Positions 1 through 64,000 of a stretch of 64,000 nucleotides of DNA are shown here, in pieces; position 1 is the stretch's first letter, and each line of letters starts with the position of its first letter. The notes under the pieces were generated by a model. It did not search any database. It saw only the letters and a list, made by a program, of their open reading frames with translations, and was not told the origin of the DNA. Both the position numbers and the translations under genes were made by a program. The stretch lies in contig CBDCJO010000002.1 in the NCBI GenBank assembly GCA_965217865.1, forward strand, positions 3,200,001-3,264,000, read 5' to 3'. Source of the stretch: Candidatus Latescibacterota bacterium. GTDB taxonomy: Bacteria; Latescibacterota; UBA2968; SICM01.

Positions 1-169
1 TACCCGTTCTGCGAACGTCCCTGACCTCTTCCAGGACCTGATCCAGTCGCTCACGCAGTTGTTCCAGAGACGCCTTTTCGCTCTCCGGCCGTTTTTCCCG
101 CTTCGTCTGGGTTTCAAGATTTTTTGACGCCGCCTGCAGTTTCTGGATGGTGGTCTGCTTTTCTAGAGA

Positions 170-293
170 CTCTGATGCTCGAAGCGCACAAATATGGTCC
201 CTCTCGTCAGCCGTAAGGTGTTTATAATTGTTTCCCATACACTTAGGATAGAACAAAAACTATCCCAAGTGTTGCACTTCCTTATTGAACTCG
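170..293 (-). mobile_element. IS30-family left end and transposase N-terminal remnant
   Basis: GTGTTGCACTTCCTTATTGAAC at 269-290 resembles an IS30 IR. The minus strand reads NNYKHLTADERDHICALRAS (IS30-type HTH start) and then switches to unrelated sequence. Confidence 0.55.
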
Positions 294-493
294 TGAGCAT
301 AAAAAAGGCCGCCATCCGATCAAATCAGCCGCGTCTTCGACGGCGGACCCCGATGTTCGGGTTGTCGCGACGGCGAAATCGGGTCAATTTTTGGAATTTT
401 TGGACTCCCTAAAAAAGGGCCGAGGCGGCCGGAGCTCGAGGCCGAGATCGTTGCGAGCGTCCAGAAGGGCCTCTCGAACAAGGGTGGCTGCCA

Positions 494-709
494 GGTGGCG
501 GGAATCAGCCAGTCGACTTTTCTGTCACTGGCTTCAGATCGGCGAGACGGCGAAGTCGGGGCGATTTCTGGAGTTTTGGAGACCCTAAAAAGGCCGGGGC
601 GGTCTCAAACCTCGCCGTCATCCAACGGGTCGCGACCGGAACGTGTGTCAACAAGAATGAGACGCCATGCAGATGCTGGCGCCGTTTCTGATCGCTCGGA
701 TCTGAAGTC
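494..709. repeat. Non-coding dispersed repeat A (inverted copy at 20181-20375; degenerate sub-unit at ~365-440)
   Basis: Direct alignment, e.g. GGCGAGACGGCGAAGTCGGGGCGATTTCTGGAG and GCGACCGGAACGTGTGTCAACA, found reverse-complemented near 20.2-20.4 kb. Confidence 0.85.
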
Positions 710-763
710 GAGGTTTTTGAGACCTCTGGAAGATAGCTCACGCCGCTTCTCTTTGCAGGAAAT

Positions 764-2020
764 CTAAGACATTACCTTAATTTCGTTAGAATAGTTCATA
801 ACTTTTTCAAAAGCTTGAGCGTATTGATCTAAAATGCCATTATCCGGTCCAGGAAATGATGGTAGCTTTAAAAGTGATTTATTGACAGCTTCAGTAATGG
901 GAAGAGAACAGTTTTCATATGACGGGACTTGATTTCCTGGGGACAACCTCAAAATTTCCTTGAAAGCCCCCTCTGTAAAAAATGGCTGTTGATGAACCAA
1001 AGGATATCTTGGAGCAGTCACTTGGCATCCTTCCTTGGTCAATGCCTCTGCAAGTATTTCAATGGGTAGAGGATGTTTAGTTTCCTCGTATCTGATTATA
1101 TACTCAAAGTATACTCTTTGAATATGATCTGGCGGCAGGAAGGTGTGGAAATCAAGGTTTTCAAGTTTTCTGGATAGGTATGTAAGATTTTTATTACGTA
1201 TTTTATTATGCTCATTTAGCCGCCTGAGTTGATTACAGCCTATGGCAGCAGAAAGAGGCGCTATCCGCGTTTTTATCCCGAAGCTTGTCGCGGCAAATTT
1301 CCGGGATGATGTTTGAAGTTCAATGATTCTTGTAATGTCTCCAAGACACACAGCTTTCTCGTAATATTCATAATTATTGCAAAGAAAAATCCCGCCTTCC
1401 CCTGCGGGGGCAAGCTTGTCTCCCTGTAGGCTAAATACGGAAATATCTCCAAGCGAACCACATGGCCTACCTCTCCAGAAAGCTCCATGGACATGAGATG
1501 CATCTTCAATGATTTTCAAGTCAAATCTTTTAGCAATGTCAAATATCTCTGTCATCTTGCTTGGAAGACCCCAAAGATGGACGACAACTATAGCACGGGA
1601 TTTTGGTGTTATCTTTTTTTCCAAATCTATCGGATCAATACCCAACCGTTCTTTCTCGCTTTCACAAAACACGGGTACAGCTCCAATCCACAACATTGGA
1701 AGAACTGAAGCCCAAAAAGTAGCGGAAGGCACCAAAACTTCGTCACCTGGTTGAAGACCGATGCTGTGGAAGGCTGCTAATAAAGCAGAGGTGCCATTGT
1801 TGTGAGCAAGTGCATATGATCGTCCGGTAAATTCAGAGTAGGCATTCTCTAATTTCCGGATAATTTTATGCGTAGAAATATTTCCATCCTGCATAACTTG
1901 TAATACGGTTTTTTCATCATCATGAGTAAGGTTGGGCCATCTGTTTGACAATTCATGGCTTATGGATACTGCAGGTATACCACCCAAGATGGCGGGAAGA
2001 TTTGTTTCACCATTGTTCAT
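764..2020 (-). CDS. DegT/DnrJ/EryC1/StrS-family PLP-dependent sugar aminotransferase
   Basis: Motifs NNGTSAL, GDEVLVP, VVHLWG, IIEDASH, FSLQGDK (PLP lysine) and GEGG. 418 aa, intact. Confidence 0.9.
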   Translation of the reverse strand: MNNGETNLPAILGGIPAVSISHELSNRWPNLTHDDEKTVLQVMQDGNISTHKIIRKLENAYSEFTGRSYALAHNNGTSALLAAFHSIGLQPGDEVLVPSATFWASVLPMLWIGAVPVFCESEKERLGIDPIDLEKKITPKSRAIVVVHLWGLPSKMTEIFDIAKRFDLKIIEDASHVHGAFWRGRPCGSLGDISVFSLQGDKLAPAGEGGIFLCNNYEYYEKAVCLGDITRIIELQTSSRKFAATSFGIKTRIAPLSAAIGCNQLRRLNEHNKIRNKNLTYLSRKLENLDFHTFLPPDHIQRVYFEYIIRYEETKHPLPIEILAEALTKEGCQVTAPRYPLVHQQPFFTEGAFKEILRLSPGNQVPSYENCSLPITEAVNKSLLKLPSFPGPDNGILDQYAQAFEKVMNYSNEIKVMS

Positions 2021-2035
2021 ATTGTTTCCCTTTTG

Positions 2036-3455
2036 TTAATGGATTTGCTCAATTATATCATCAAACCGTCCTCGAACTTTGTTTATATATTCATCTAGGT
2101 GACTATCGTGATTCTGCCCCTTGTATTCAGGTAAATGAGAGGATAACGTTTTGAGGTATTCTAAATTATCATTCTGAAAACCAAGGCCCTCTCTGGGTAA
2201 CCATTGGGAAATGTTGGTTCTCCTTCTCAAATAGTCTTCAAGAGTACAACAAAACTCATTACTAACACACCAGTCAATTGCAGGTACTTTGTCATGCAAA
2301 CCAGGGAAAGATGCCCAAGATATTTTCCCGGTTTGGTTATCAGGGCAGGGGATTTCCTTCAAACTGGGAGGGATCTTTTTAATTATTTTCTTTGTAACTT
2401 TTTCTGCCATTGAAATACATCCGCTAATTTTTCCCCCATAAATTGAAATCCATGGCAAATCAGAGTCATCAGCAATTTTATGATTGCGAGAAATATTTAG
2501 AGGATAACAGTCGGCATTAAATGTTTTCTTCACGGCGAGAGGCCGAAGGCCACAGCGGAGCGAAACAATCTTTGATTTAGCCATGAAATATTTCAAATGT
2601 CTAGACGCATGTTTTAATAAAAAATGGAGATCTTCAGGGGTAATTTTGTTTGTCCGGCCTCTCATAGCCAATAAAAACACCTTTACTGTATACATGCTTA
2701 TAGGAACTTTGGATACCAAATCGTTTATTGACATTATCAGTCCACACTCCAGCACAATTTAGGAGCATTTTTGCCTTTATTGTGCATTGATGACTTGAAA
2801 AATAATCTTTTAGGTCTAAAGACCAGAATTTGTCTTTATTGTTATAGTTCGCATCCTGAATGGAGCAGTAATTAAGGGCCAAACAGTCTTCTGTTTGATT
2901 GTAAATAATCCAATCCAGAACAAATCTGCTGTCTGACTGATTAAGGAATCCTTCTTGGTAGAGGATCGATTCTTTATCATTTTTATGGTTTATAATGTCC
3001 AGTTCCTCAAACTTTCTCTGAATGGTTGGCCTTTCTCGCCTACATTTCCCCAACAGCCAATAGAGTTGTAAGGCAAGATAGACAAAATACTTATTCCGTC
3101 CCCATTCGCTATTTGAGATATATCTGAAGTATTTTTGACTGACATGATTATTAAATGAATTTATCATTATGTCTCTGTCTTTTGAAAAATTATAGACCGA
3201 TAAAAAATCAAGATTTTTTAAATAAAGCAATCCTCCCCAAATCATCATTGCTGACGCCTGACTTGTTCCGCAACTGAAATCACCTTTGTCTATTAGAAAT
3301 ACTTTATAGCCTTGTTGACTTAGCTCTCTATAAATTGAAGCACCATTTATTCCGCCGCCAATAATAGCAATATCAAAGGATTTATTTTCAAGAACATTCC
3401 AATTTACTTGACGAATGTTCATGTGTCCTTGAATTGTATCGTTTTGAAAACTCAT
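2036..3455 (-). pseudogene. GlpD-like FAD-dependent oxidoreductase, split by internal deletion/frameshift near 2640
   Basis: N-terminal IIGGGING..DKGDFSCGTS in ORF 2634-3455. C-terminal GLRPL, YGGK and TLEDYLRRRT in ORF 2036-2755. Confidence 0.75.
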
Positions 3456-3460
3456 TGTTA

Positions 3461-3521
3461 GCCGAACGCTTTGACGATTAGCTGTGGCGCGAAGCTGTCA
3501 ACTGCATACCGTTGTGAACGC
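3461..3521 (-). other. Degenerate attC site upstream of the oxidoreductase/aminotransferase pair
   Basis: Minus strand CACAACGGTATGCAGTTGACAGCTTCGCGCCACAGCTAATCGTCAAAGC-GTTCGGC follows the short attC pattern. It ends a few bases before the ATG at 3455. Confidence 0.55.
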
Positions 3522-3689
3522 CTAGTATGGAGGTCCCGTCAAGAGGTGTGTAAATGAGGTCAGGCGGCCCGTCTGATCCTTCCCTTAGAGGACGCTTCTT
3601 CCATCTGTCGTGTCCCAAAGATTCCTTCAATAATTCCTCGGATAAAGCGGTCTGTAAACCCTGAAACGGAGCGAAGGAGTTCTAGGATT

Positions 3690-3835
3690 TAGAGACGGCT
3701 TGGCGCTCTTGACTATCATTTCCCTTGTTCGCCCGATCACGCCCTTGTCATACAAGAAAGTTGCTGGCACGACAACTGCGGCTCTTCCGTCAGGCCTTAG
3801 TGATTCCCATATATGTTGCATACAAACAGCGTCAG
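3690..3835 (-). pseudogene. N-6 DNA methylase (HsdM-like) internal fragment
   Basis: MQHIWESLRPDGRAAVVVPATFL matches the post-NPPF segment of type I methylases. Truncated by an IS3 end. Confidence 0.6.
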
Positions 3836-4670
3836 TGATATGACCCGGGAAAAGTGGACAGTGGTTTAAGCCGCTTTCTTCAGCGATAGGCGTTCAAAAA
3901 GGGCCGGGGACACATAGTTTCAGGTAAGCGTGCAGCCGCTGATTGTTGTAAAACATTTCGATGTACTCGAAGAGTTCGCGCTCTGCATGATCGAGGTCGA
4001 TCAAGTCGACGTGATACAGCCATTCGGTCTTCAAGGTTTTGAAGAATGACTCGGAGACGGCGTTGTCCCAGCAATCGGCCTTCTTGCTCATGCTTTGAAC
4101 AAACTGATGCGCGCCGACGGCCTTTCGGAAGCCATCGCAGCAATACTGAATACCTCGATCGGAATGAATCATCAGATTCGGCTGCGGTCTGCGTTGCCAT
4201 ACTGCGCGTGACAGGGCCGTGAGTACCGTTTCGTGCGCCAGCGAGGTGGTGACGCACCAGCCAACCACGCGACGTGAAAACAGGTCAATGAATACAACCA
4301 GATACAGCCATCCCGATCGACTGGACAAATACGTGATATCGCTGACCCACACTTCGTTGGGACGACCCGCGTCAAAGGCCCGGTTCAGCAAGTTCGGGGA
4401 TGCCTTCAGGTCGTGCTTCGTATCCGTGGTCACCACGAACTTCCGACGTACCTTCGACCGGAGGCCCTGACGACGCATCGAAAAGGCCACGCGGTTGCGC
4501 CTATACGGCTTTCCTTGTGCCGCCAGCGCACGGCTGATCTTCAGGCTCCCATACCGGCCACGGCTGGCCTCGCAGGCCGCTTTTACCAGGACATCCAGAA
4601 GAAGTCGTTCCTGCTCGCGCTCGCTCTCAGGGCGGGAAAACCAGCCATAGTAACCGCTTGCTCTTCGACA
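3836..4670 (-). mobile_element. IS3-family element, 5'-truncated (OrfB with frameshift plus right IR)
   Basis: PNEVWVSDITY, IHSDRGIQY and DCWDNAVSESFF DDE core. IR TGATATGACCCGGGAAAAGTGGACA at 3836. Confidence 0.9.
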
Positions 4671-4744
4671 GAGACGTGCCTCCCTTGAAGACCAGGTCCT
4701 TGCCGAACGGTGCCGAAAACAAAACGTCCAGCGTCTGCACGACC

Positions 4745-5131
4745 CAGATGCACCGTCTGGGCACAAAGTCGCAGCCGGCGGTTAGGACCGGAGGTCAGGT
4801 AGACCGGCCGCAGCGGCACCTGCGTGGTGAGGCCGAGAGCGTTCGCCGCCGCGCCACCGCAAGGGACCATGACCTCTCCCCACAACCTGGAAAGCGACGC
4901 GATCACTTTCTCGATAGCCGGTGGGCGCGCGCCAAAGCGCGTCTCAATGGGCCGCATGTAGACACCCTGGCAGGCCCGAATGAGCCGCCCCCGACGGGCC
5001 AGGCGCGACAAGGCTTGGTCGACCGCCGCCGCCCGGTTGCCGAGGTGCAATAGAGCGCTCGGGCAAAGCGGGGCGCCCTCGGGCAGTGACGCTGCATGTT
5101 GTTCTATCTGCTGAGACAAGCTGGGTATCAT
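4745..5131 (-). pseudogene. DUF6088 / AbiEi-like antitoxin, C-terminally truncated
   Basis: GNRAA.VDQALSRL...QGVY..P..TRFG and AANALGLTTQVP..VYLTSGP motifs. Confidence 0.75.
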
Positions 5132-5361
5132 CGTTCTCTCCTGTAACCGTCAGAAATATAGCATATAAACTGACATTGCGTAAGGGAATTTAGAAGAAAC
5201 CCGTGAGTCGTGTGAGAAGAGGACGGCATCTCGGCGGAGAGGGTTGGACAAGATTCGTGTCGAAGGGTTCCGTAAGCCAGTGGTCGCTCCTCCGGTGAAG
5301 TCTGGAGGCGAACCGGCCCCGGGACTGTTGGGATGGCAGCTGTTGCGGCCGGAGCGGTTCT

Positions 5362-5492
5362 GCTACTCCGGCCAGTAGCCGGACACGATCCGGTGCCGCT
5401 TGATGCCGGTCGCCTCGGCCGTATAGACCCAGGCGAGTTCGCGGGCGCCATTCACCGTGGCGGGTATCAACACGCGCCGGAAGAAGCTGGAA
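5362..5492 (-). pseudogene. Gamma-glutamylcyclotransferase-like C-terminal fragment
   Basis: Minus strand reads SFFRRVLIPATVNGARELAWVY...IVSGYWPE*. Confidence 0.5.
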
Positions 5493-5592
5493 CCGCCCAG
5501 GGCGGAAGCCCTCGAGGCGGTCTATGGGGGCAGGCGCAATTCGGGATCGTCGAAGGCGAGCAGTTCTCCGAACACGTCGCCAACCCGACCGG

Positions 5593-5698
5593 GCTGTTAA
5601 ACAAGGCCGACGGGAAAAACAGAGAATCGGAGAATCCGGAGGAGATATCTCTGCTCAACGGACGCAGTCCCCACGGTTGCGCTCGAACACCGGGGGGA
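5593..5698. repeat. Non-coding dispersed repeat B (inverted copy at 18782-18887)
   Basis: GCTGTTAAACAAGGCCGAC...GGAGATATCTCTGCTCAA...GCGCTCGAACACCGGGGGG is nearly identical to the reverse complement of 18782-18887. Confidence 0.9.
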
Positions 5699-5825
5699 AC
5701 GCTTCGAAACAGAGAATCTGCAGAGAGGGGGAGGAGACAGCACAAGCGTTTGTGAACACGACAGAAACGACAAGACCCCGAAGAGGTTGCCCCACGGGGT
5801 CTTGCGTTAACGGACGACCGCCTAA

Positions 5826-6117
5826 CCTGAATGTCGGGCGCCAGGTGGAGCAGGTTCATGATCTGCGTGATCCTCGCCCGGGTCACGCAGCCGAGGCGCG
5901 CCAGGTCCGCATAGTCCCGCAGGTCGCCCCTCCGGACCAGTCCCTCGAACCGGATCGCCAGGGCCGTCAGTCTCGATATGCGAGGCATATTCCCCGGCTC
6001 GACATTCCGGTCCTGATCCACGGGGCGGCAGCCGTTGTTCCGGCCGTTCCCGGGCTGGAACGTGAAGGATACTTCCAGGGGGCCGGCCCGGGTTGCATCG
6101 GATGGGCGACCGCTCAT
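5826..6117 (-). pseudogene. Small HTH protein typically downstream of large serine recombinases, truncated
   Basis: PRISRLTALAIRFEGLVRRGDLRDYADLARLGCVTRARITQIMNLLHLAPDIQ; overlaps the stop codon of the recombinase fragment. Confidence 0.7.
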
Positions 6118-6525
6118 CGCATGACCTCCTGTCCGTTGAGACCCGCCTTCCGGCACAGCGCCTCGATGCCGGGTGGGCGAAAGGTGACGGTCACCGTGCC
6201 GTCCCGTCCGTCGTAGCCGACCCGCTCGATGAGCAGCCGGAGTCTCCGGGCCTGCTCCCGCGGGGCCAGCGCCGCCCAGACCGGGTCGAAGATCTCCAGG
6301 GCCCGGGCCAGGTCGCTTTCATTCACGGCTTCCCGCTCAAGAGCGGGAGCCTCTTCCCGGAGAGCGGTCAGCCGCTGTTCCCGCGCTTTGGCCGCCGCGA
6401 CCTGTTCGTTCATGCCGATGCCGCGGATGTGCTCCACCACTGCGGTTTCGATCTCGTGGGCGTTGAGGGACCTGCCCGGACACGACGACCGGCCCCGCTG
6501 CCGGGCATTCCTGCAGACGTAATAT
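6114..6525 (-). pseudogene. Large serine recombinase C-terminal fragment (Zn ribbon, coiled coil)
   Basis: YYVCRNARQRGRSSCPGRSLNAHEIETAVVEHI...LLIERVGYD..VTVTFRP. Confidence 0.8.
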
Positions 6526-6698
6526 GCCGATCACCGCTTCCGCTTGCTTTTCTTTCGCCACTGGCGTTCTCGCTGCTTCCACATCCGCTTGGGCATGACC
6601 TTGCTTTCGGGAAATGGGACCTTTGCTGCCCGCAAGAGTTTAATCAGTGATGGTCCGCTTTCTTCACAAGGGTCTCCAGCTTCTCTATGAGAAGGGGG

Positions 6699-6886
6699 AG
6701 CCGCAACTGGCGCGTCGTATTCCGCTTCGAGGGCGTGCGTGTCTGCAACGTGGATTTGAATCGATTACCACCAGGAGGACCCTGATATACCGATGAAGAA
6801 TCCACCCCCATCGGGGCCTGTCCGTCCGTCACGACTGCCTGGAGCCGCTGGGACTCAGCGTGACGGACGCCGCAAAGAAGCTCGGG
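6699..6886 (+). pseudogene. HigB toxin C-terminus / HigA antitoxin N-terminus junction fragment
   Basis: SRNWRVVFRFEG..VCNVDL..DYH, then MKNPP..GLSVRHDCLEPLGLSVTDAAKKLG (both frameshifted). Confidence 0.75.
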
Positions 6887-6896
6887 AGGAATGAGA

Positions 6897-7112
6897 ATGA
6901 GAAAGTCTGTCTACGTGATACTGTCGGTTCTGATCGCCGGGATAGCATCGGCGAGGCCCAAGCCGATCGAGATACCGGAAGGTTACGAGCACGACAAGTG
7001 GAACACCGCACCTGACGATGCTATTCGTAAATTCGGGGCATTCACGAGTTCGTTCGACACCGACGACGACGACACGGGCGATGGCGTAAAGGATCTCTGG
7101 GGTATTCCCCAG
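6897..7112 (+). pseudogene. Secreted protein N-terminal fragment (possibly DNA/RNA non-specific endonuclease)
   Basis: Signal peptide MRKSVYVILSVLIAGIASA and acidic FDTDDDDTGDG..WGIP segment. The family call is from recollection only. Confidence 0.4.
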
Positions 7113-7250
7113 TCCAGGAAGAGCACAAAACGCCGATTCGAAGCGTCGAGTGCGCCAAGTTTGTCGAACAAATTTTCCACTGACCAGTCTTCGGGATTAC
7201 TGTAAACGTGTTTTTCGATGGCCGAACGAAGCGTCGGAAGACCCAAGATT
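7113..7250 (-). pseudogene. AbiJ N-terminal-domain-like fragment
   Basis: LRSAIEKHVYSNPEDWSVENLFDKLGALDASNRRFVLFL resembles AbiJ_NTD3. Confidence 0.55.
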
Positions 7251-7334
7251 TCCTTCACCGTGGTGCACTCACGACCGTGGACTTGACCCGGTTTCGTGGA
7301 TACCTTATTACTTGGCAGAAAGGAGGATGCTACG

Positions 7335-8547: not shown

Positions 8548-8649
8548 ACCGCACGTGTCGAACGACAACCCTTACTCCGAGGCGCAGTTCAAGACCTTGA
8601 AGTATCGCCCGGACTTCCCGGAACACTTCGGTGGGCTCGAACACGCCCG
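8548..8649 (+). pseudogene. Fragment of a different IS3-family transposase that was the insertion target
   Basis: Joining 7266-7277 to 8552 onward gives HSRPHVSNDNPYSEAQFKTLKYRPDFPEHFG. Confidence 0.8.
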
Positions 8650-9371
8650 TTTGGGCGGACGGGATCTATTTCAACGTGCGCCTGGATAAGGATCGGCCCT
8701 TTGTGCTCGTGCTGGTCGGTGCAACGGCTGATGGCTGCAAGGAAGTCATCGCTATCGAGGACGGTCAGCGTGAGAAGCAAGCTATCCTGGCAAACCCTGT
8801 TGCGGGATCTCAAAGCACGGGGTTTGACGATCGACCCATCCCTGGCCGTGGGAGACGGTTCTCTGGGCTTCTGGGCGGCATTGGAAGAGGAGTATCCCAG
8901 ACAAAGCACCAGCGATGTTGGGTCCATAAAACTGCCAACGTGCTGGACAAGCTTCCGAAATCCGTTCAGCCCGACGCTAAGCAACTGATCCACGAAATGT
9001 ATCGATCACCGAGCCGTAAACACGCCCCGACGACCTATGATCGATTCTACGAACTCTACCAGGCCAGATATCCGAAGGCCTGCGAGTGCCTGACCAAGGA
9101 CAGGGATGTGCTTTTCACCTGTTACGATTTCCCGGCGATACACTGGCTCCACCTGCGCAGCACAAATCCGATTGAATCAACCTTCGCTACGGTCAGACAC
9201 AGGACACGTCAAACCAAAGGATGCGGATCGGTTAATGCCACGATGGCAATGGTCTATAAGCTGGCTCTCGGAGATGAGAAATCGTGGCTCAGATTACGAG
9301 GCTCAAACCTGATACAGCTGGTCGTTGATGGCACCCTGTTCGAAGATGGTGACCTGAAAAGGGCTGCCTGA
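8650..9371 (+). mobile_element. IS256-family transposase 3' part, frameshifted
   Basis: WADGIYFNVRL, QRCWVHK, HLRSTNPIESTFATVR. Near-identical overlap with 29795-30160. Confidence 0.88.
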
Positions 9372-9387
9372 TCCATTCGGATACGCT

Positions 9388-10002: not shown

Positions 10003-10064
10003 CGGTTGCCACTTGAGAACATCCTCAAGAGTGCGTCCCAGAGGCCCTCGGACTCACTATGGGC

Positions 10065-53140: not shown

Positions 53141-53214
53141 GCATTTGGGCCGGGATTATCGCATGTCGCGGACTCGACCCTGGTGAACGAGGACGTTGGC
53201 CCAACTGCAACCGC

Positions 53215-53345: not shown

Positions 53346-53414
53346 GATTGTCGGCCGCCTCGCGTGCTGCGCTGCCCGGCGGGCGGAGCCTCGACGCCTT
53401 CCTGCTCCCGCGAT

Positions 53415-53585: not shown

Positions 53586-53895
53586 CATCGGAACATGTCA
53601 ACAATTTTGAGACACTGAAAGTTGGAATTTAGTGAAGTTTCCGGCCGTCTCCATAGGAGGTGTCATCGGCAACCGGCGAGCGTGTTCAAGTAGTGGTCAT
53701 TTCCTCCCCGGGGGAGGTCGATTACCTGGAGGTTGACTGATGTATAAGACGCACCGCCCGTGGGCCCCCACCGCGCCCGTATCCGTGGCCTCGTGGAGGG
53801 AGATGAAGACATTGTTGATCTTGTCCGGTTTAAGGTTGGAGTCGAAAACGCTCGCACCCGCCTCGACCAGCTTCGCATAGTCCACCATCCCCTAA

Positions 53896-55421: not shown

Positions 55422-55499
55422 CTAAAGGCCGCTTTTGTGTGTTCGAACTCCCTGGAGATCAGCCGGTTTCTCACCAAAGCCATATTTTCACTAGCCAGC

Positions 55500-56075
55500 T
55501 TAACTTATATCTTTTTTTAATAACTCATCAGCGAGAATTGGCAAGTACTCTATCAAACTGTTATACACCCCACGCTTGCGAGCAGCCAAGTAATTTTTTA
55601 GACTGTGAAACACAGGATCTGCCAAATGAATGCCGTGCTGACTCTTCAATTTAGAAAGTCCACGTTGGGCATGGCCTTTCCCTTCGAACTCGTCACGATA
55701 CAAAGCGGTCGATGCTTCGATAAGGATTTCAGTGAAACGGCTTTTCCAATCCGGGTACATATCAGGAAACCATCCTCTGAACTTCATTTCGGCCTCCAAT
55801 GGAGCCATTCGGTCGATAAATGATGGATGGGCATGCAGCACTTTTCTCCAGTAAGAATGTGCCATTTCGTGAAAAACAAGATACCTTTGAGATCGATATC
55901 GTTTGAACCTAAGGGGAAGTGGACTAAATCGAAATACAACAGGCGGACCCCACAAGGCGAACGAGACCTTTGCATTTGATATCTCAAAACCAAAGGATGG
56001 TGGACAAAGTGGATTTGGGACTAAGGTCAAGTTGTTAATAGAAAACCCAAATAAAAGGTTCATAAATTCGTCAAC
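55500..56075 (-). pseudogene. DUF4932-like HExxH protein, 5'-truncated
   Basis: LVFHEMAHSY...W...FTEILIEA. Confidence 0.5.
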
Positions 56076-56096
56076 TCTGCAGCCTTCGTCCGAACG

Positions 56097-56519
56097 GTGA
56101 AGAAGCCGGGCAGGTACGGCGACGGGAACGGACTCTATCTGCTTGTCACGCCGACCGGGGCGCGCTGCTGGGTGCAACGACTAACGATTCGCGGACGGCG
56201 GCGCGAGCTCGGCCTGGGCGGCTTTCCCTTGGTGACGCTGGCCGAAGCCCGCGAGAAGGCATTTGCCTACCGCAAGCTGGCCCGTGCCGGCGGCGACCCG
56301 CTCACGGAGAAGCGCAAGGATCAAGGCGTGCCCACGTTCGAGGAAGCCGCCGCGAGGGTGATAGAAATTCACCGGCCGTATTGGAAGAGCAGCGGCAAGA
56401 GCGAGGCGCAATGGGAACATTCGCTTCGTCATTACGTGTTCCCGCGCCTGAGCCGGTGTTCGGTGTCGGAGATCACGACGGCTGACGTGCTGGAGGTCTT
56501 GACTCCGATGTGGCCCTGA
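56097..56519 (+). pseudogene. P4-like tyrosine integrase N-terminus (Arm-binding), truncated
   Basis: PGRYGDGNGLYLLV...RRELGLGGFPLVTLAEARE. Confidence 0.88.
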
Positions 56520-56624
56520 CTCGTTCCGCCCGACTAAAGCCGTAACGCGTTCGAGCGGAATCCAGTTACTGTCGTCGATATTGCGATAATTCAGAACTCT
56601 GAATCGTTTCGGGAGCAATTTCAT
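56515..56624 (-). pseudogene. OLD/AAA_15-type ATPase N-terminal fragment
   Basis: FRVLNYRNIDDS.WI.LERVTALVGRNESG, cut within Walker A. Confidence 0.7.
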
Positions 56625-56932
56625 CAAGACTGTGCGGCGGTCCTGCGGACCACAACCGTCCGCTTGCTTCATCCGTCGTGGTGCCGGCAGGCATGGTTTA
56701 CTTGACAGTGCCAGATGGTCAGTGGCGGCGGTATGCGCCTCGTCCGCGCGGGCGATTGTGGGTCGCTTCGTCAAGGCTCTTTGCAGCCGCATACTCAGTT
56801 TTCCCGCCGCTTTGGTCACCAAGTTGGTGCTACCCGCGTTTACGTAAGCGATTTAGTTCGCGCTGGACGATTTCGAGCGAAAGGCACATGACCCCATGAA
56901 GTAGAACTCAACTCCGTCTCGGGACGCCGAAT

Positions 56933-56985
56933 ATGGCTGGGTTTACGGTGTCCACTAATGGCCAGATTTGACCCGTCCGCCGAGA
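56933..56985. mobile_element. Possible IS21-family end remnant
   Basis: Tandem TGGC.G..TT...GTCC.C units (TGGCTGGGTTTACGGTGTCCAC / TGGCCAGATTTGACCCGTCCGCCGAG). Confidence 0.4.
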
Positions 56986-57024
56986 ATGGCCATGGCGGTC
57001 AGGGTCCCGATCGCGGCCCGCGTC

Positions 57025-57356
57025 GTGCGTCAGCACCTCGCTGGCGCACGAAACGGTACTCACGGCCCTGTCACGCGCAGTATGGCAACGCAGACCGCAG
57101 CCGAATCTGATGATTCATTCCGATCGAGGTATTCAGTATTGCTGCGATGGCTTCCGAAAGGCCGTCGACGCGCATCAGTTTGTTCAAAGCATGAGCAGGA
57201 AGGCCGATTGCTGGGACAATGCCGTCTCCGAGTCATTCTTCAAAACCTTGAAGACCGAATGGCTGTATCACGTCGACTTGATCGACCTCGATCATGCAGA
57301 GCGCGAACTCTTCGAGTACATCGAAATGTTTTACAACAATCAGCGGCTGCACGCTT
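57025..57356 (+). mobile_element. Internal fragment of the 3836-type IS3 element
   Basis: Near-identical to 9388-9710. Confidence 0.88.
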
Positions 57357-57450
57357 GGAGGTTAACGTTCCCGTGCCGGTCTGTGGATGATAACTCCCCG
57401 CGCTGTGCGTGCTCACCCTCCCTGCTTCCGACAGGCCGTTATGCCTGACA

Positions 57451-60363
57451 TTAGTCCAAAAGATCAAATCGGCCCAGACGGAGCAAGTTTTCACGCGCAC
57501 GTTCTGCGGTCTGACGCACGCTTTCGTCGCTGCTTTCAAGACCTGCAGCCACAATGGGTTTTGCGTCTTCGGTCCGAATGTATATCGAGTCACTTTCAGT
57601 CCTAGACTCTGTGATTCTCGCAAAACACTTGACCACCATTGCGGTGTGATCTGGAAGCATTTTGCGCAACGCTCCCAACTCAATGTAGATCGGACGGTCT
57701 TTGGACGTGTCGGCATCCAGATCCAGAATCCTAGAATATGCATCCAATCGCCATGCCGCACTCAGGCATTCGGCTTCCAACCAAAAGGTAAACTTTTGAA
57801 GCTCTGTCGGCTCCCTGGCTTCAAGCCGACATTCGAAAAACTCAATAAGCCGGTCCTTCAAGGCCTCATCAAGGTGCCTCCCGCTGTTCTGTAAAAACCT
57901 GCCCACGTAGTCAAACAACCTTGCCCAGCGTTTTGGGTCGCCGTCTGTCTCTTGGTAATAACGCTCAAGAAGGCTTTCTTCTCCCGCGAGCGGATACACG
58001 TCCCACAAATAGTACATAAACAGATGCTGTCCGAGACTATCAATCGGTTCTCGACGAGGTAGGCCTTGTTCTCGGAGCTCGGAAAGATGTTGCAGGGCAA
58101 AATCGAAATTTTCGACAAGAATCTCGAAAGTCGGCTTGTAGGGGTTAGTGAAATGCAGGAAGTTGCCGAATGCCACTGACCATGTATCCAATACATCTTT
58201 GGGAAAAAAGTCTGCTCTATGCTCGGTCGCCCATACCTCATTGATGCCGAATATCTGGACGTAGTTTTTACCTAAAATGGCATACTCCGCCAGCGTCAAA
58301 GGATACCTCGCATCCAAGCCAAAGCGTTTTTCAAGAATTGTAGCTACCTCTGGAACTTCGGTCTTCGAATGACACCTCCGTACCCACAAACCAAATTTAA
58401 CCAAGTCTTCCAGTGCGCGGCTCCGGATATTATTGATGGCCTCGCTGATCGGAGCCTCTATGTTCAAAAGCGTTGGCATGTTCCGGTCTAAGCGCCAATC
58501 AAATTGTGTGCAAAGTATATCAAGAAGCCTGGATAGTTGCCCACGGAAGGAAATCGGCACATTCACATCCTCTTCGAGACAGCCTCCTATAAAGTCACCG
58601 ACTGCTCGCCGTGAGCTATGCCAATCGGGATGCTCCCGGGATTCACCACCAATTCTGCCGAGGCTATAGCTTTCTTGGTGTTCTTGATCAGGATGTGAAA
58701 GCAACCATTTGCAAAATGCTAGCCATTCGTTGAGCTTATCGAAGTTCTGTGCTCTGACGTTCTCGTGCATTCCATCAATCATCACCCGTACGTAAATGGG
58801 CCGCTCAATCCTTTCGCGATTCTCGATCCAGAATCTGAGTCTGTTAGGATCCGGAATAATCGAATCCCTGAAAGCGGTTTTAAAAGCTAAGGCGAGAGCT
58901 TCGATATTGACAAAGCAGATGGTTTTTTTATCAAGGTGTTCTTCCTGCCATTCGTTTATGTAGTTTAGTAGCTCCTCACTCGAGAGGCTTGCGAGATCCT
59001 CGGGTGGTTTTGGGCTGAGATGAGACACTATCCCGCCTTCGCCGCTTGCTTCACCAACTATCGAATAGTCTTCATCGCCAGTCTGTTTGTTGACCTCGGC
59101 TTCTAACTCCTGGAAGTAGGATAAAAATTCACCAAATAACACGGAAGCAAAGGGCTTGAACTGCATCCGGTGAAAACCTCGCTGGTACTGCGCGAACAGT
59201 TCCTCCGTAAATTGTTCTCCCATCCGTTCGCGGAAATCCGCCTTCGATGGACCGCTGCGAATGGCATCGAAGATTCGCGTCCGCTCATCTTCAGTGAGCA
59301 ACTCCGCGCCAAAACGCTCACAGGCCAGCCGTATCATCCGCTGAAATTCATAGTGGTGTTCCCATTTGCCATAATCATCATGCGCCAGGACCAACTTCCG
59401 AATCCACGGCTTGGTTTGCTCGCTCGGATGTAGAGCGTAAAGGTGTTGACGAAGGCGTACGAAGAGCTTCCATCGGTTCTGGCGTAACGCCTTGTCTAAG
59501 ATTCCGACTAATTGCGGCAACTTTTCAAACACCATCTCGCACGCGAAGTTCAACGTATGAACAAGTGTTTCCTTGGAGTCCTGGTCCTCTCTATATACGC
59601 TGTCGACCCGTGGACACCATATTTCTGAGAAATCCTCCTCTCCGCTCTTATTGGGATTCTCTTGGTGTGCTTCAAACTGAATCACATTGGCCGTGGCCTT
59701 AATGAGCATACAAGCAACCTGATAGGGTTCCTTGTCCGCCAATGGGCGTAGCCCTTTCTCCATTATTTCTCCATATTCCCAGCACTCGAACCGAGGAGCC
59801 GACTCTAGAAGCGTCCTCAAATCATCTGGATTTTTCCTTTGACGCTTCAGCTTTTCCTCTGATTGAGGATCGGGGGCAAACTCAACCAGCATCTTGGAAA
59901 GTTCTAATGCAGCCAATGTTTGATCTTGTTCCGTCCAATGGGCTAACAATTCTGCGTATCTGTAAGCCTGGAATTGGTGCTTTATCTTTGCATATTCGAG
60001 TATTTTTGGCTTCAACCGGGCAGACTGATTTCCTTGGAGCTTCAATGCAATATCCAAAATCTCATCATAGACCCTTGGATTATCGACTCTGGGCAACTGC
60101 AATACGATGTTTATGACTTTATCTGGCTCGTAATCGGACACGTTCTTGAGGTATTGAAGCTCTGGCCAAAAAGGGAATTGAACAGAACCATCAGGCAAAT
60201 CCCTGATTTTCGGAGGGCACTGAAAATAGTCTCTCTCGACCAAAGGCTGAATCCACAAAGGATTTTGCAGCCGAGAGAAGAAATATTTCCGGTCAGTCTC
60301 CTTCTTAATCGACGACAGAGCTTTTTCTACCATTTCATTGGTTGGTTTCTTCCAGGATTTCAT
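57451..60363 (-). CDS. Large alpha-helical hypothetical protein (~970 aa)
   Basis: Intact ORF with N-terminal YFFSRLQNPLW..PL....YF..PP segment and no recognised catalytic motif. Confidence 0.8.
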   Translation of the reverse strand: MKSWKKPTNEMVEKALSSIKKETDRKYFFSRLQNPLWIQPLVERDYFQCPPKIRDLPDGSVQFPFWPELQYLKNVSDYEPDKVINIVLQLPRVDNPRVYDEILDIALKLQGNQSARLKPKILEYAKIKHQFQAYRYAELLAHWTEQDQTLAALELSKMLVEFAPDPQSEEKLKRQRKNPDDLRTLLESAPRFECWEYGEIMEKGLRPLADKEPYQVACMLIKATANVIQFEAHQENPNKSGEEDFSEIWCPRVDSVYREDQDSKETLVHTLNFACEMVFEKLPQLVGILDKALRQNRWKLFVRLRQHLYALHPSEQTKPWIRKLVLAHDDYGKWEHHYEFQRMIRLACERFGAELLTEDERTRIFDAIRSGPSKADFRERMGEQFTEELFAQYQRGFHRMQFKPFASVLFGEFLSYFQELEAEVNKQTGDEDYSIVGEASGEGGIVSHLSPKPPEDLASLSSEELLNYINEWQEEHLDKKTICFVNIEALALAFKTAFRDSIIPDPNRLRFWIENRERIERPIYVRVMIDGMHENVRAQNFDKLNEWLAFCKWLLSHPDQEHQESYSLGRIGGESREHPDWHSSRRAVGDFIGGCLEEDVNVPISFRGQLSRLLDILCTQFDWRLDRNMPTLLNIEAPISEAINNIRSRALEDLVKFGLWVRRCHSKTEVPEVATILEKRFGLDARYPLTLAEYAILGKNYVQIFGINEVWATEHRADFFPKDVLDTWSVAFGNFLHFTNPYKPTFEILVENFDFALQHLSELREQGLPRREPIDSLGQHLFMYYLWDVYPLAGEESLLERYYQETDGDPKRWARLFDYVGRFLQNSGRHLDEALKDRLIEFFECRLEAREPTELQKFTFWLEAECLSAAWRLDAYSRILDLDADTSKDRPIYIELGALRKMLPDHTAMVVKCFARITESRTESDSIYIRTEDAKPIVAAGLESSDESVRQTAERARENLLRLGRFDLLD

Positions 60364-60976
60364 TGACACCCTTTATTCGTTCTAATGTACTGCTTGCAGC
60401 GATGTACAAATAGCTATCAAGCGTTTGAAGAAAATGCCTTCGAACTTTAGATGGTGCATCCTGTGAAAAGGCTTTTTCTCGCAGATGAGCATGTTTGAGA
60501 AACCATTTTTTCGCCGTTTTCCATTCCTTTATAAAATTCTGGGGGATTTTATCGCGGTCTTTGTAGTCCAAAAAGGTACTAAAGAAAATGTAATCAGCCT
60601 CTGATGCTTTGAGACGGACAGCTTTATGCTCATCAATCAGTTTCTTTATCTTCTTGCAGGTTTGATAAGGAATTAAATGGCCGTTTTCAACACAATCCAT
60701 TTTATTAAACCCTTCCGTTCCCCATTCGCTTTTCCATTCGTGTTGGAACTTATCCACGAGAGCCTTATACTGAACGTGCTCCGTATTGATGCCCTGCACA
60801 CTCCGGGCAAGAGTATTCATCAAATCCCTACCCGTATGCGACACAAAGGTAATGTAGCCTGACGATTTCTTGTCCAGGAGATCCAATGCGCCTTTGTAAG
60901 CTTCAGCAAACACAGGTCGCTGGAGCTTTTTGTTTAGCCAATCAAAGATGCGTTGTTGTTTCTGTGTGAGCATCAT
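60335..60976 (-). CDS. Hypothetical protein, possible HEPN-like fold
   Basis: RBS GGAGG. Contains YKGAL..L, SHTGRDLMN and WFLKHAH. Overlaps the downstream gene by ~30 bp. Confidence 0.7.
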   Translation of the reverse strand: MMLTQKQQRIFDWLNKKLQRPVFAEAYKGALDLLDKKSSGYITFVSHTGRDLMNTLARSVQGINTEHVQYKALVDKFQHEWKSEWGTEGFNKMDCVENGHLIPYQTCKKIKKLIDEHKAVRLKASEADYIFFSTFLDYKDRDKIPQNFIKEWKTAKKWFLKHAHLREKAFSQDAPSKVRRHFLQTLDSYLYIAASSTLERIKGVNEILEETNQ

Positions 60977-61098
60977 GCAGCGTAAATGCCTCCTTGAGGA
61001 CGGTGTGGAGGAGGAGGGCAGCGCATCCCATCGTGCTCTTGAGCTCCAGCGTTCCGGATTCGCCTATCGCGCGGCCAGCGCTGTTAATCTGTTCAGGC

Positions 61099-61143
61099 TG
61101 ATATGACCCGGGAAAAGTGGACAGTGGTTTAAGCCGCTTTCTG
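61099..61143 (-). mobile_element. Solo 45-bp right end of the 3836-type IS3
   Basis: TGATATGACCCGGGAAAAGTGGACAGTGGTTTAAGCCGCTTTCT is identical to 3836-3879. Confidence 0.9.
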
Positions 61144-61652
61144 GCGGCTCTCCTCCGGCTCGCCGTTGATGTCGGGATAGCCGAACAGGCGCTTTTCCGT
61201 TCGCACATCCTCCCGCCGATCGAGTCCGAGAATAATGACGTGCACATGCGCCTTGCCGCGCGCGTCCGATCCCCACGCGAAGGTGCGGTGTGCGAAGGCC
61301 ACCTCCAGCTTGCAGCGCCCGAACAGGACAGGCCACAGTTGCGCGACCTGTTCGCCTTGCGTGATCGAGTTGGTGGCGACGAAGCCGATCTGGGCACGGC
61401 TGCCCTGCAGATACTCTCCCGCCTTGATGAACCACGCGGCGACGTAATCGAGCGTGCCGCCGCTCTTGCCCAGCGCCGTGATCCCGCGCACTTGGGCGCG
61501 TTGGTCCCCCGTCTGATACTTCGCGCCCACGAAGGGCGGATTGCCGAACACGAACGAGCAATCCTCCGGCGGCAGCAGGTCCGCCCAATCGGTTTCCAAC
61601 GCATCGCCATGGACGATGTGCGGCGACTTCTCCAGAGGAATTCGGGCGTAGG
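61144..61652 (-). pseudogene. MmeI-like type IIL methylase fragment
   Basis: YARIPL.KSPHIVHGDAL..DW, GNPPFVG, LDYVAAWF, FVATNSITQGEQV. Confidence 0.85.
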
Positions 61653-61869
61653 CGCCCTGTCGGGCGCGAGACCCGATCCTGAACCCGTTTCCCTTGCCCC
61701 CGCTCGTACTCCTCGGCCCACTTCGAAAGTTTCAGCTTGCTCCGGTTCAACCCCGCCGCCTTCCCTTGGCCGGATCGACCCCGAACTGCCGGTAGATGGG
61801 TCTTCCGCGCTACAGGCGAAGTGAAGGTGTCCTTGACGTGCGTCGAGTTGTCTGGTCCTCGGTCCTCGT

Positions 61870-62367
61870 GACCAGCGAGACCGTGGAGTTGAACAACCGA
61901 TCCATCTGGTTACGTAACAGCGTGCGGTCGCCACGGTTGCTTCCACCACTCATGTGCAGGCCCAGCTTGCCCATAAACTCGGCCAATGATTTCCCTAAAA
62001 CCAACACGGGGGACTGAGTTTTGACGCCCTCAGTCGAGACCCAGGCAAGCAAGAGGCGCGGCAGGGTGCCGAAAGGCAGCTTACTGCCTGCCGTAGCGGT
62101 CATGTAGAGCGTGTAGGGGCCGTTCTGTCGCTTGTATTGAAGGCGGTTGCCGGGGTTGGTGCGGGGCAGGGAGCACAGCGCCATCGTCCGCGCCATGAAG
62201 CCGAGATCGGGGTCCGCTTCGCTAGCCGTAACAAGCTGGTTCACCTGATCGGCCTGGGTGAAGTGGTGGCGGGATTGGGGCGAGGCGTCGCGAATCGCCT
62301 TCACTGGCCCGCCCAGATCGGCCAAGGCATCACCGATGGGAACCAACTCGTTTCGTTGACGCTGCAT
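61870..62367 (-). pseudogene. repA: Plasmid-type RepA (IncW-like RepA_C), truncated
   Basis: GFMAR..ALCSLPRTNPG...R.NG, LPFGTLPRLLLAWV.TE, LRNQMDRLF. Confidence 0.82.
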
Positions 62368-62400
62368 GGCTTTGCCGCTGAGTAGGTTGTAAATCTTCAA

Positions 62401-63400
62401 TCAATTGATCTTCGGGTCAACCGGATAGTCGTGGAGGATCACGCCGCCCCCTTCCGTTACCCGGTAGACGTCCTCAAAGCGCACACCGCCAATCTCTGGA
62501 ATCGCCAGTATCGTGTGACCGATCGTCATTGTCATATCTGCCCGTATCTGCGTTTTTCGATGAGCCGGAATAATCGTCGACGCCGGATTTTCTTCGAAAC
62601 GCAGGCCGATACCGTGAGAAACCCCGTTGATGTGATATTGCTCCAGGTCATGCCGAACACATACTTCTGCGCCTACAGCGTCCAGATCGGAGACCGTCAC
62701 TCCCGGCTTCAGTATCTTCCACGTCGCTTCGCGAATCTCGTTGTAGGTATCGAGCAGCAGTTGTTCCTGCTCACCCGCATCACCCATGACAAATGTGCGA
62801 GCCAGATTTGCGCAGTAGCCTTCGAACAGCGGGGTCAAGTCTACGACGACGAGGTCCCCCGCCTCAATCGGTGTCCGGTCAACTTTCCCGTGAATCCAGG
62901 AGCTGCGAAGCCCCGAGTTTATATAGATCGGCGTGCTCGTTCCGTCAGCCCCCGCTTTCATCATGGTGTAGAGCGCTTCGGTTGCGATTTCATGACCGGT
63001 AGCCCCTGGTTTCAAGAGTTCCCGAACACGATCCATCCCGATTGCGGCAATGGCCTGCGTACGCTTCATCAGTTCGATCTCGTCCGGCTCTTTGACCATG
63101 CGTAGTTCGTCCATCACGGGATCAGAGGAAACCAGATCGACCTGAGGGTTGACCTTTCTAAACAGGTCGACAAGAAACGCGGGCGTGTGAAACCACAGTT
63201 GCATTCCCACCCGTGGCCTGCCGCTCGCCGGCAACTTAATTCCAGGCGGTGGGCCGCCATAGAGTTCACGAAACGTTTCTCTGACGTTAGAAATCTGCTC
63301 GCCCACATGGCTAAATACTTTGAACGATTCATCACCGAGTTCACGGCGTAAATCGGCTTCCTCGCCCGCAAATCCAACAAAGACCGGTGAACCGCTAGCC
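62401..63400 (-). pseudogene. Xaa-Pro aminopeptidase (M24), N-terminus replaced
   Basis: LRMVKEPDEIELM, VVVDL, YCANLART, HGIGL, GGVRFED. Confidence 0.8.
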
Positions 63401-63574
63401 GGTATTCTGGCGTGGGTCAGTGGCGAGCTCGAGACAGCGTTGAGGGCACAGATCCGGCCCGTGTGCGACTTTCTTTCTGAATCCGGGAAAAGGGGGACGC
63501 GACCTCCACAAAACGGGCGGCACGTGGGCGAAGTGAGAAGGTCCCGGTCCCGTGGATTTGCGGCCCGGGACCCC

Positions 63575-63700
63575 ACTCGTGATCGGGGTCGAGCATCTCG
63601 AGAGCCCGAGCTTCGGCTTCCTCGCGAGTCATCCCACCCTCATGCTCCATGATCCCCGCGCGTTCATCGAACGCCTTGATGTCATCCTCCGTAGATGTCG
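63575..63700 (-). pseudogene. Phage/plasmid replication-associated helical fragment
   Basis: AFDERAGIMEHEGGMTREEAEARA motif. Confidence 0.5.
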
Positions 63701-64000
63701 CCGCAGTGTTGGGGGGATCAAAGCGTGACACCGTGACATTCTTTTGTTTACAAGGACTTACATGATGTTCAAAGCGTGACATCGTACCATCCATGTCACG
63801 CTTTGAAGGGGGAGATATGTGCGCGTTCGGCTTGGAAACATCGTCCGAGTCGTCCTCCATGTAGCTATCCCATGCAGAGAAGAACGCTTCCCACAGGTAG
63901 CCCTTTCCCCTTGCCGGCCCATCCAGACCACGCAGATATTGATAGGGGATCATAAATTCTGGGCTTTTCACGGGACACCATCTGTACCAGCTAATGCCGG

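Follow-up and report, generated by a model that had tools for sequence, protein, structure and literature searches.

A fine-grained patchwork of mobile-element, defence and cassette gene fragments in a Latescibacterota chromosome and its possible origin in nonhomologous end joining

What process can lay fragments of unrelated genes side by side in a bacterial chromosome, and does the outcome serve a function? The question is raised by a stretch of 64,000 nucleotides, hereafter the window, from a Candidatus Latescibacterota bacterium (GCA_965217865.1) whose genome measures 6.43 Mb in two contigs, C1 and C2 (96% complete, 9.3% contamination). The window corresponds to C2:3,200,001-3,264,000. A preliminary description regarded it as an end-to-end mosaic of mobile-element and defence gene pieces, either a long-lived integration hotspot compressed by serial short-homology deletions or, more speculatively, an archive of captured fragments comparable to a piRNA cluster. 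We find that the window is one slice of many similar zones, unexceptional within its genome, and that these zones hold near-identical copies of each other's DNA. The copies are joined with an overlap of 0-5 bp or with one added base, probably, though far from certainly, by nonhomologous end joining (NHEJ) through Ku and LigD, and would then have been shortened by deletion. The patchwork is likely a by-product of repair without a function of its own.

That broken mobile-element, defence and cassette genes form a real and unusually fine patchwork in the window is well supported. By nucleotide tiling, 62 of its segments have a homologue elsewhere in the genome, and 50 of them measure at most 700 bp (10.7 kb in total). 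A comparison with Pfam of 418 stop-to-stop segments of at least 45 amino acids (aa), taken outside the long open reading frames (ORFs) and outside two duplicate copies of insertion sequences (IS), added further partial domains: N6-MTase (3630-3893), AbiEii/AbiEi (4586-5149), a recombinase Zn-ribbon (6117-6530), AbiJ_NTD3 (profile positions 48-89 of 167), C5-MTase (1-146 of 324), AlbA_2 (1-44 of 118), the Cas3 C-terminus, NotI, FtsX, two phage-integrase pieces and RepA_C. The more than 30 abutting gene pieces reported before are thus present, and the order of pieces given for 5.3-7.3 kb is correct where testable. The serine-recombinase pieces match a DUF2924/recombinase element at C2 3.485 Mb, the supposed secreted protein represents the 5' piece of an Endonuclease_NS gene (351 aa, C2 538 kb), and the pieces that we take to be HigBA, having recognised their sequences, match an intact pair in the relative G011. 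The GGCT-like piece presumably deserves its label on the basis of a motif and of a match to locus L008 of G011; no hidden Markov model (HMM) confirmed it. The earlier statement that most junctions lie away from IS ends holds as well: the natural ends of 10 library IS families fall within 25 bp of 19 of the 101 distinct boundaries, and of the 171 distinct breakpoints that the genome has inside IS copies, 121 abut no other element end.

Two elements of the preliminary description are in need of refinement. The term "end-to-end" overstates a patchwork that is otherwise real, as ORFs of at least 330 aa span 30.2 of the 64 kb (~47%), among them a 1629-aa Type ISP restriction-modification (R-M) gene, a 660-aa KAP NTPase, a DegT aminotransferase and a 972-aa ORF, and six full-length IS copies are present. 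The bias of the donors toward IS, integrase, Rep, toxin-antitoxin (TA), R-M and Cas genes is genuine but incomplete, as HAD, GNAT, methyltransferase, NT5C-like and peptidase genes are common too, several of them as integron cassettes. Many pieces are 97-100% identical to DNA still present megabases away. An MmeI-type gene, for instance, is intact at C2 44.7-47.6 kb, 3.2 Mb off, and two internal copies of it reside in the window (111 bp, 99.1%; 511 bp, 99.6%). No orthologous locus was found among the 30 relatives searched (31 genomes with this one), whose closest kinship is at the rank of family. PHROGs matched 4 of 137 window segments, and Rfam and tRNA scans of the window gave no match.

Could such a mosaic arise during metagenome assembly, by splicing of haplotypes or species? 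The contamination estimate, contig ends that overlap a third copy of a 7-kb block and a read check covering a minority of the junctions genome-wide would be in line with such an artefact. We compared the window with four sequencing runs, one per study: X1, perhaps the source sample, and X3, X7 and X10 from other studies. Among the matches listed, X1 contigs bridge 51218-51723 and 51706-53206 with 0 differences, X3 contigs bridge 49756-51584, 57327-58620, 60337-61127 and 4824-5407 with 0-1 differences and 7084-7304 with 0, and both X7 and X10 contigs bridge 3305-3863 with 0-1 differences. An assembly chimera, raised earlier as a possible objection, is therefore refuted for the bridged junctions. 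Moreover, depth scales with copy number: 6850-7113, which occurs four times in the assembly, has a depth of 59 in X1 against ~8-16 for unique stretches, and of 23.8 against 4-11 in X3. The IS copies agree at 99.5-100%. Taken together, an artefact is very improbable as an explanation of the patchwork. Some junctions are strain-specific, since X7 and X10 contigs diverge from the window at 51613, those of X7 additionally at 49756 and 56078, and in X1 and X3 the site of the IS at 53.9-55.4 kb is empty. The stretch 49.0-53.6 kb is partly present in 21 runs from 12 studies, and seven of the runs contain at least half of its words. Contigs matching the element IS3b (window 3836-4660) reach a depth of 1300-1900 in X7 and X10 versus ~2-25 for unique stretches, and a near-identical IS is thus probably carried by more abundant community members. 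As to the contigs themselves, the end of C1 shares 6.3 kb (99.97%) with the start of C2, and a third copy lies at C2 3.289-3.296 Mb, 25 kb past the window; C1 and C2 probably adjoin in one chromosome.

The window had been treated as a singular locus, which it is not. Repeats cover 24% of C2, and zones with at least 40% repeat cover make up 1.95 of the 6.43 Mb (~30%). Per 32 kb, the window reaches 0.40 and 0.39, below the 0.58-0.76 of the neighbouring bins. Across 10 IS families, 116 of 231 copies are broken in zones versus 15 of 106 outside (Fisher P 8e-11), although a zone definition by repeat cover favours whole IS copies and is biased against this excess. The 3' ends of tRNA or tmRNA (transfer-messenger RNA) genes begin several zones, the zone of the window not directly, and families of integrative elements occur in several copies. 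A terminus effect was rejected, as zones lie on both arms around dnaA at C2 2.24 Mb. The relative G011 has a coarser junk zone at 4.49-4.53 Mb of its contig C1 (L008/L009), where an IS256 is interrupted by group II intron reverse-transcriptase genes and IS1595, and which also holds R-M and WD40 genes.

The zones are connected by 294 low-copy dispersed duplications of at least 100 bp and at least 97% identity (median 419 bp, ~0.2 Mb; a 295th row, a contig overlap, was left out). In 190 of them both duplicates lie in IS-dense DNA, whereas 34.6 were expected; zones were delimited here solely by the density of high-copy repeats. The ends of 276 chained blocks fall at a repeat of at least five copies in 194 of 552 cases (35%), compared to 40% by chance. 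The duplications are consequently not transposon-bounded, and IS-bounded or one-ended transposition was rejected as their source. The median duplicated block is ~530 bp; the newest blocks (at least 99.5% identity) have a median of 1043 bp and the older classes 386-506 bp. Donors in an IS-poor context are few (24 listed) and comprise low-copy IS elements, but also accD (four pieces, perhaps fewer events), fliG (one) and cas1. DNA that was already broken has been duplicated as a block as well, as seen for a stop-containing scrap of cas1 that occurs both at C2 114 kb and at 3.75 Mb.

Does the patchwork store information? A dedicated archive would capture mobile-element fragments to supply guide RNAs or DNAs, as in a piRNA cluster. 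The donors are indeed strongly biased to accessory DNA, and the Cas1-like gene that had been suggested as a marker exists: one intact Cas1 and six scraps were found elsewhere in the genome, in addition to three genes with a reverse-transcriptase domain. Nevertheless, an archive would be expected at one or few loci and not in many zones over ~30% of the genome. The IS pieces of the window are of mixed strand (nine on the plus, six on the minus strand), and the proposed polarised accretion was not observed, as identity shows no gradient with position within the zone at 3.10-3.37 Mb (rho -0.05, P 0.62, n = 113). No Piwi-domain gene was found in the genome, while the control was positive in two known genomes; short Argonautes were not searched for. 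There is no Rfam match and no regular CRISPR-like repeat between the pieces of the window. Pieces of accD and fliG, the cas1 scraps and scraps of CRISPR repeats have been shredded alike, and IS families with pieces here are still highly active (90 full IS1182-like copies). We hence consider an archive function hardly credible.

Independently of this question, the genome harbors several CRISPR-Cas loci and scraps. In a type I-E-like array at C2:140.2-141.0 kb, two consecutive spacers match the own chromosome over 33/33 positions (C2 3,321,102 and 5,507,872); both targets have the same two flanking bases, and the adjacent cas3 looks truncated. The cas locus at C2:605-624 kb (L030) combines a 12-repeat array, cas1 and a 932-aa Cas3 with genes that appear Csm-like and type I-G-like by eye, and the 3' part of its cas1 is copied (98.8%) at 252 and 377 kb. 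Isolated groups of one to three CRISPR repeats, of the same repeat types as four arrays, are located at C2 373, 386, 599, 1,062, 1,973 and 3,480 kb.

How the copies were joined can be read from the junctions. From 456 two-donor junctions, 221 were kept after dropping same-donor, IS-end, contig-end and duplicate rows, and 54 non-IS junctions whose donors are both at least 98.5% identical constitute a young set. Junctions at IS ends are unfit as a microhomology control, and were excluded as such, because donor choice and target duplications inflate the overlap. Overlaps of 0, 1-2, 3-5 and 9 bp occur in 9, 23, 9 and 1 of the young junctions, respectively, and the 9-bp case is probably a target duplication. 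The remainder carry additions: a single nucleotide in five, 3 bp in one and fillers of 8-27 bp in six. A simulation with the real donor divergence expects 28.0 junctions at 0 bp, 18.9 at 1-2 bp, 2.6 at 3-5 bp, 0.05 at 9 bp and 0.42 with one added nucleotide. Single-base additions are thus in excess (5 versus 0.42, P 6e-5; larger gaps 7 versus 4.1), short overlap is favoured and long overlap is unneeded. In Streptomyces, reported NHEJ scars show 1-6 nt microhomology in 50% and additions in 40% of cases, with captured endogenous pieces of 30-83 bp (PMC5869714), and NHEJ of Sinorhizobium meliloti is reported to add 1 nt at blunt ends and to capture DNA in breaks (PMC6379672). The 54 junctions match this Ku-LigD pattern of blunt ends or 1-6 nt microhomology plus additions.

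Some junctions form chains of three to four short pieces from different distant loci, e.g., at C2 438.9-439.7 kb. A search for the configuration A-fragment-A' returned 44 events, ~36 of which are IS or MITE (miniature inverted-repeat transposable element) insertions by eye. The single clean non-IS capture is a 214-bp, 100% copy of a locus 2.5 Mb away, placed inside a piece of a copied gene without loss of target and with overlaps of 1 and ~5 bp. A few other events are accompanied by a target loss of 129-195 bp; one of them, at window 8548-9388, is no more than suggestive.

Long duplicates could also have entered by integration of large elements or by homologous recombination with rearranged DNA of kin, and have been cut up afterwards by serial, Ku-independent short-homology deletions. 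Several observations agree with this: the newest blocks are the longest, deletions within one donor are richer in microhomology (at least 3 bp in 24 of 39), families of integrative elements occur in several copies, several zones begin at tRNA/tmRNA 3' ends, RecA, DprA and ComEC are present, and clean captures are rare. It is at odds with the two-donor junctions, however, only 1 of 42 of which has an overlap of at least 6 bp and which show the excess of 1-nt additions. In addition, 24 of the 83 blocks at 99.5% identity or more are already shorter than 500 bp, chains of tiny distant pieces would require many deletions within ~1% divergence, and broken DNA such as the cas1 scrap was itself duplicated as a block. 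Serial deletion as the whole explanation is therefore rather unlikely. The hotspot initially proposed was broadly right in that mobile DNA has long been eroded by illegitimate joins, in line with the microhomology-rich same-donor deletions and the shorter older blocks. It does not stand as one self-compressing locus, given the many pieces that are 97-100% copies of distant DNA, and the two-donor joins, mostly with 0-2 bp overlap or a 1-nt addition, fit end joining better than short-homology deletion.

Template switching or single-strand annealing at replication forks offers another Ku-free route, comparable to microhomology-mediated break-induced replication (MMBIR) or to SPDIR, a short-patch form of double illegitimate recombination, and favoured by a lack of RecQ and RecBCD/AddAB. 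It directly explains why the donor is kept and why chains of several pieces exist, and a short tandem re-copy within the IS3b 3' part of the window (9787-10002) begins at an 8-of-10 bp match. In Acinetobacter, loss of RecBCD is reported to have raised SPDIR, in one event (bioRxiv 10.1101/2023.11.22.568220). Yet SPDIR as reported there yields microindels of 3-100 bp at extended microhomologies, against a median block of ~530 bp here, and its reported suppressors RecA, RecJ and DprA are all present. Blunt joins and 1-nt additions, moreover, account for 14 of the 54 junctions. Template switching is, in our estimate, distinctly unlikely to be the main source.

The gene content is compatible with Ku-LigD NHEJ. 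The search for NHEJ genes suggested at the outset yielded an intact, adjacent pair of Ku (285 aa) and a three-domain LigD (774 aa; polymerase, phosphoesterase and ligase); directly 3' of ku, the operon continues with a TPR and DUF433 gene (C2:1,097,804-1,098,697). RecA, RecF, two RecJ, MutS, DprA and ComEC are encoded as well, and loss of mismatch repair (MutS intact) and of RecA, RecJ or RecF was rejected accordingly. HMM and motif searches, and tblastn with proteins of relatives, gave no RecQ, which is present in 24 of the 31 genomes. Nor did HMM or motif scan reveal AddA/RecB, and tblastn with the AddA-like protein of a relative returned only UvrD-type genes. PF22548, which we take as a proxy for the primase-polymerase/helicase of the IS-excision enhancer (IEE), has no match in the genome. 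NHEJ is reported to be patchily distributed across bacteria (PMC7719229), and Ku is present in 9 of the 31 genomes.

We propose the following course of events. Islands, cassette arrays and IS have gathered in non-essential regions. Transposases, integrases and nucleases would probably cause frequent breaks there. Since neither RecBCD/AddAB nor RecQ was found, broken ends likely persist for long, and the scars suggest that Ku-LigD would ligate them to unrelated ends or to loose chromosomal pieces, which may derive from the sister chromosome or from uptake of kin DNA. Products would survive only without loss of an essential gene, which would confine the patchwork to the zones. The assignment of the joining reaction to NHEJ enzymes, which draws on scars and gene content, is in our view somewhat more plausible than not.

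Several points weigh against this proposal. Clean A-fragment-A' captures are rare, and most junctions are of the type A-B, which a larger duplication followed by deletion can produce too. Only 3 of the 54 young junctions are located in the window, none of them bridged among the read matches listed, and donor and recipient can be ambiguous in low-copy pairs. Illegitimate joins of the gyrase type likewise use 0-4 bp overlap. The gene absences rest on a 96% complete genome. Fragmentation was also compared in IS-centred samples of 8-15 sections of 20 kb (160-300 kb) per genome, in three relatives with Ku and three without it. The former gave 0-2.3 and the latter 0-1.7 truncation breaks per 100 kb, in small samples that may miss the worst zones and with counts that scale with repeat load; this genome has 15-16 around IS3a and 1.7-13.3 with mixed centres. 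G011, with the same repair profile (Ku found; AddA and RecQ not found), scored only 2.3. Ku alone is insufficient and does not predict the pattern, and a high break supply or weak purging in the lineage is probably required as well.

Much of the non-mobile gene content of the window is accounted for by a remnant of an integron-cassette array. Single ORFs bounded by attC-like sites occur at 37.4-47.4 kb (plus strand) and in two minus-strand patches. Complementarity of core and inverse core is 10/10, 8/10, 10/10 and 9/10 for four cassettes. A stricter attC scanner detected no sites, and a simple, relaxed one recovered three of these sites and one doubtful match, versus 0-1 in five shuffles; genome-wide it gave 37 matches, with no same-strand pair within 2.5 kb among those listed, which makes it unsuited to mapping arrays. 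No TIGR02249 match above the cut-off was found, so the array has no intI nearby. The best integron-integrase-like candidate (C2:1,657,172-1,658,351) scores below the cut-off, is split in two frames and lies in a housekeeping region 1.6 Mb from the window. With several attC, single ORFs and no intI, the array has the predicted make-up of a cluster of attC sites lacking an integrase (CALIN; PMC9229058), with attC assigned by features other than a covariance-model score.

The array (37445-47414, plus strand; based on attC-like sites, Pfam and core complementarity) is wrecked. It starts with a cassette, an attC carrying IS110a (38636-40555), a truncated methyltransferase, an attC carrying IS110b (41067-42703), a HAD gene in two frames and an attC. 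GNAT, attC, a 245-aa ORF, attC, an FtsX scrap, an IS3 scrap, half an attC, DUF5662 and a last attC, interrupted by an IS1182-like piece, follow. Elements of the IS1111-attC type insert just after the attC inverse core. One of the two IS110-family elements does so, and most of the nine full IS1111-attC-like copies of the genome are in an attC-like context by eye. The other element (38636-40555) lies just before the core, at the opposite end, and possibly represents a second attC-targeting specificity. Other full copies of both elements have mostly similar attC contexts. One minus-strand patch (22630-24099) contains two integron-type cassettes, a methyltransferase piece and an alpha/beta hydrolase, with an attC-like site between them at 23428-23509. 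The other (49823-51613) has an attC-like site near 50.32-50.43 kb and contains NT5C-like, nucleoside deoxyribosyltransferase and HAD genes, and both its flanks vary among strains (X1, X3, X7 and X10 contigs).

The other parts of the window illustrate the grain of the mosaic. It opens with near-intact passengers on the minus strand, a 418-aa DegT aminotransferase and an FAD-oxidoreductase that is divided between two frames (767-3497; Pfam). A fine mosaic at 3500-5150 (minus strand) follows, composed of a MITE end (3608-3684), an N6-MTase scrap, the 3' part of IS3b (3836-4660), AbiEii/AbiEi and IS3 scraps. The stretch 5131-7277 unites the GGCT-like scrap, DUF2924/serine-recombinase scraps (5567-6524), HigBA scraps, the nuclease 5' piece and an AbiJ scrap, and contains a 97.5% copy of C2 538.2-538.7 kb (6639-7113). 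On the plus strand, IS3a, a full-length IS3-family element with 10 full copies in the genome (7278-8547), precedes an integrase-core scrap, an IS256 scrap, the IS3b 3' part and a truncated 1.55-kb IS (8548-11118), and then a phosphotransferase-like gene, Cas3 fragments (12.8-14.3 kb) and an AAA-methyltransferase gene (11693-16343); a 69-bp, 100% copy of C1 577 kb precedes the Cas3 fragments. A full element at 16413-17946 (plus strand), which we take to be IS1182-like from its DUF772 and DDE_Tnp_1 domains, recurs as full copies at 20933-22465 and 53892-55424 and as a 478-bp piece at 47415-47892. Recombinase-element scraps, a truncated HTH-C5 methyltransferase, a NotI-like endonuclease scrap and a HAD scrap occupy 18780-20958 (Pfam and nucleotide matches).

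Further along, the KAP-family P-loop NTPase (25112-27094) and the Type ISP R-M gene (32177-37066) are of intact length on the plus strand. Between them, a scrap of 46 bp that matches C2 580 kb abuts the 111-bp internal MmeI-type piece (99%; 27895-28050), and IS256 fragments lie with copies of DNA at C1 621 kb and at C2 285 kb (29175-30597, plus strand). At 47415-49755, two IS families are joined internal-to-internal at 47892 with a 2-bp overlap, next to an IS3 scrap and a 469-bp, 97.9% copy of C2 229 kb. A phage-integrase C-terminal scrap, a 359-aa ORF and short unnamed scraps are located at 51614-53891. At 55422-57356, a copy of C2 1.044-1.046 Mb is joined bluntly (56078/56079) to a piece of C1 307 kb (98.9%) that holds an integrase N-terminus, beside an internal IS3b piece. 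The 972-aa ORF (57451-60369) and a 213-aa ORF, together at 57451-61063 on the minus strand, have no convincing family; the former matches no Pfam or PHROGs family and has ~62-67% DNA matches in the relative G018. The last stretch (61026-64000) combines a 73-bp scrap, a 45-bp IS3b end, the 511-bp internal MmeI piece (99.6%, 2-bp overlap), a RepA_C scrap, a 1043-bp M24 peptidase copy (99.5%, from C2 3.545 Mb) and a recombinase-element scrap.

As to whether bacterial NHEJ shapes genomes naturally, the cited reports, so far as they describe it, show capture and rearrangement only after induced breaks and propose a natural role. With dozens of young junctions for which both donors are present, this genome allows scar spectra to be tallied and set against the content of Ku, AddAB and RecQ in complete genomes. 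Of interest are this countable natural scar set and the repair-gene profile; mobile-element graveyards as such are already known. It is a tentative and rather doubtful extension that NHEJ has replaced resection-led repair and acts as a genome-wide copy-and-paste engine, creating eukaryote-like dispersed segmental duplications and chimeric defence loci over ~30% of the chromosome; on that reading, this would be the first natural and countable record of bacterial NHEJ as a builder of genome structure. In any case, a defence island in such a genome can be a recent assembly of broken copies, and an archive-like appearance can arise from repair and selection alone. No earlier description of the pattern was found in the literature surveyed, which leaves out most subscription journals.

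The patchwork can finally be compared with known systems. It shares dense, nested mobile-element fragments with piRNA clusters, yet no single locus, strand bias, polarity or Argonaute was found. Plasticity zones, mobile-element graveyards and defence islands of IS-rich bacteria likewise assemble IS, R-M, TA, Cas and integrase remnants in dispensable DNA, several beside tRNA genes. The grain here is much finer, though, most breaks lie off IS ends, and hundreds of recent non-transposon duplications connect the zones. CALIN with IS1111-attC (PMC9229058) resemble the window in their single-ORF cassettes, complementary core sites, lack of a near integrase and IS110-family elements in attC; in contrast, the cassette reading covers only ~13 kb of the window, its array is itself cut by non-attC joins, and the second IS110-family element lies at the opposite attC end. 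SPDIR of Acinetobacter and the IEE also generate deletions or insertions at short homologies. However, products of SPDIR do not exceed 100 bp and its suppressors are present here, whereas microhomology-mediated end joining by the IEE of E. coli O157 is reported to need at least 4 bp of homology (PMC9943667) and no AEP-TOTE domain was found here. Closest are the two NHEJ systems. Ku/LigD capture in S. meliloti (PMC6379672) shares the 1-nt additions at blunt ends and the integration of linear DNA at a break, and its authors propose a role of NHEJ in rearrangement within species; it is a laboratory assay with supplied DNA, and the available part of that report describes no natural patchwork. The NHEJ scars of Streptomyces ambofaciens (PMC5869714) have in common with ours the 1-6 nt microhomology, the additions and the captured endogenous pieces, including a transposase scrap, as well as rearrangements tolerated in dispensable regions. 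There, breaks were induced and the dependence on Ku and Lig was tested, whereas here a natural, genome-wide footprint in many internal zones away from the terminus points to a probable role of the same enzymes.

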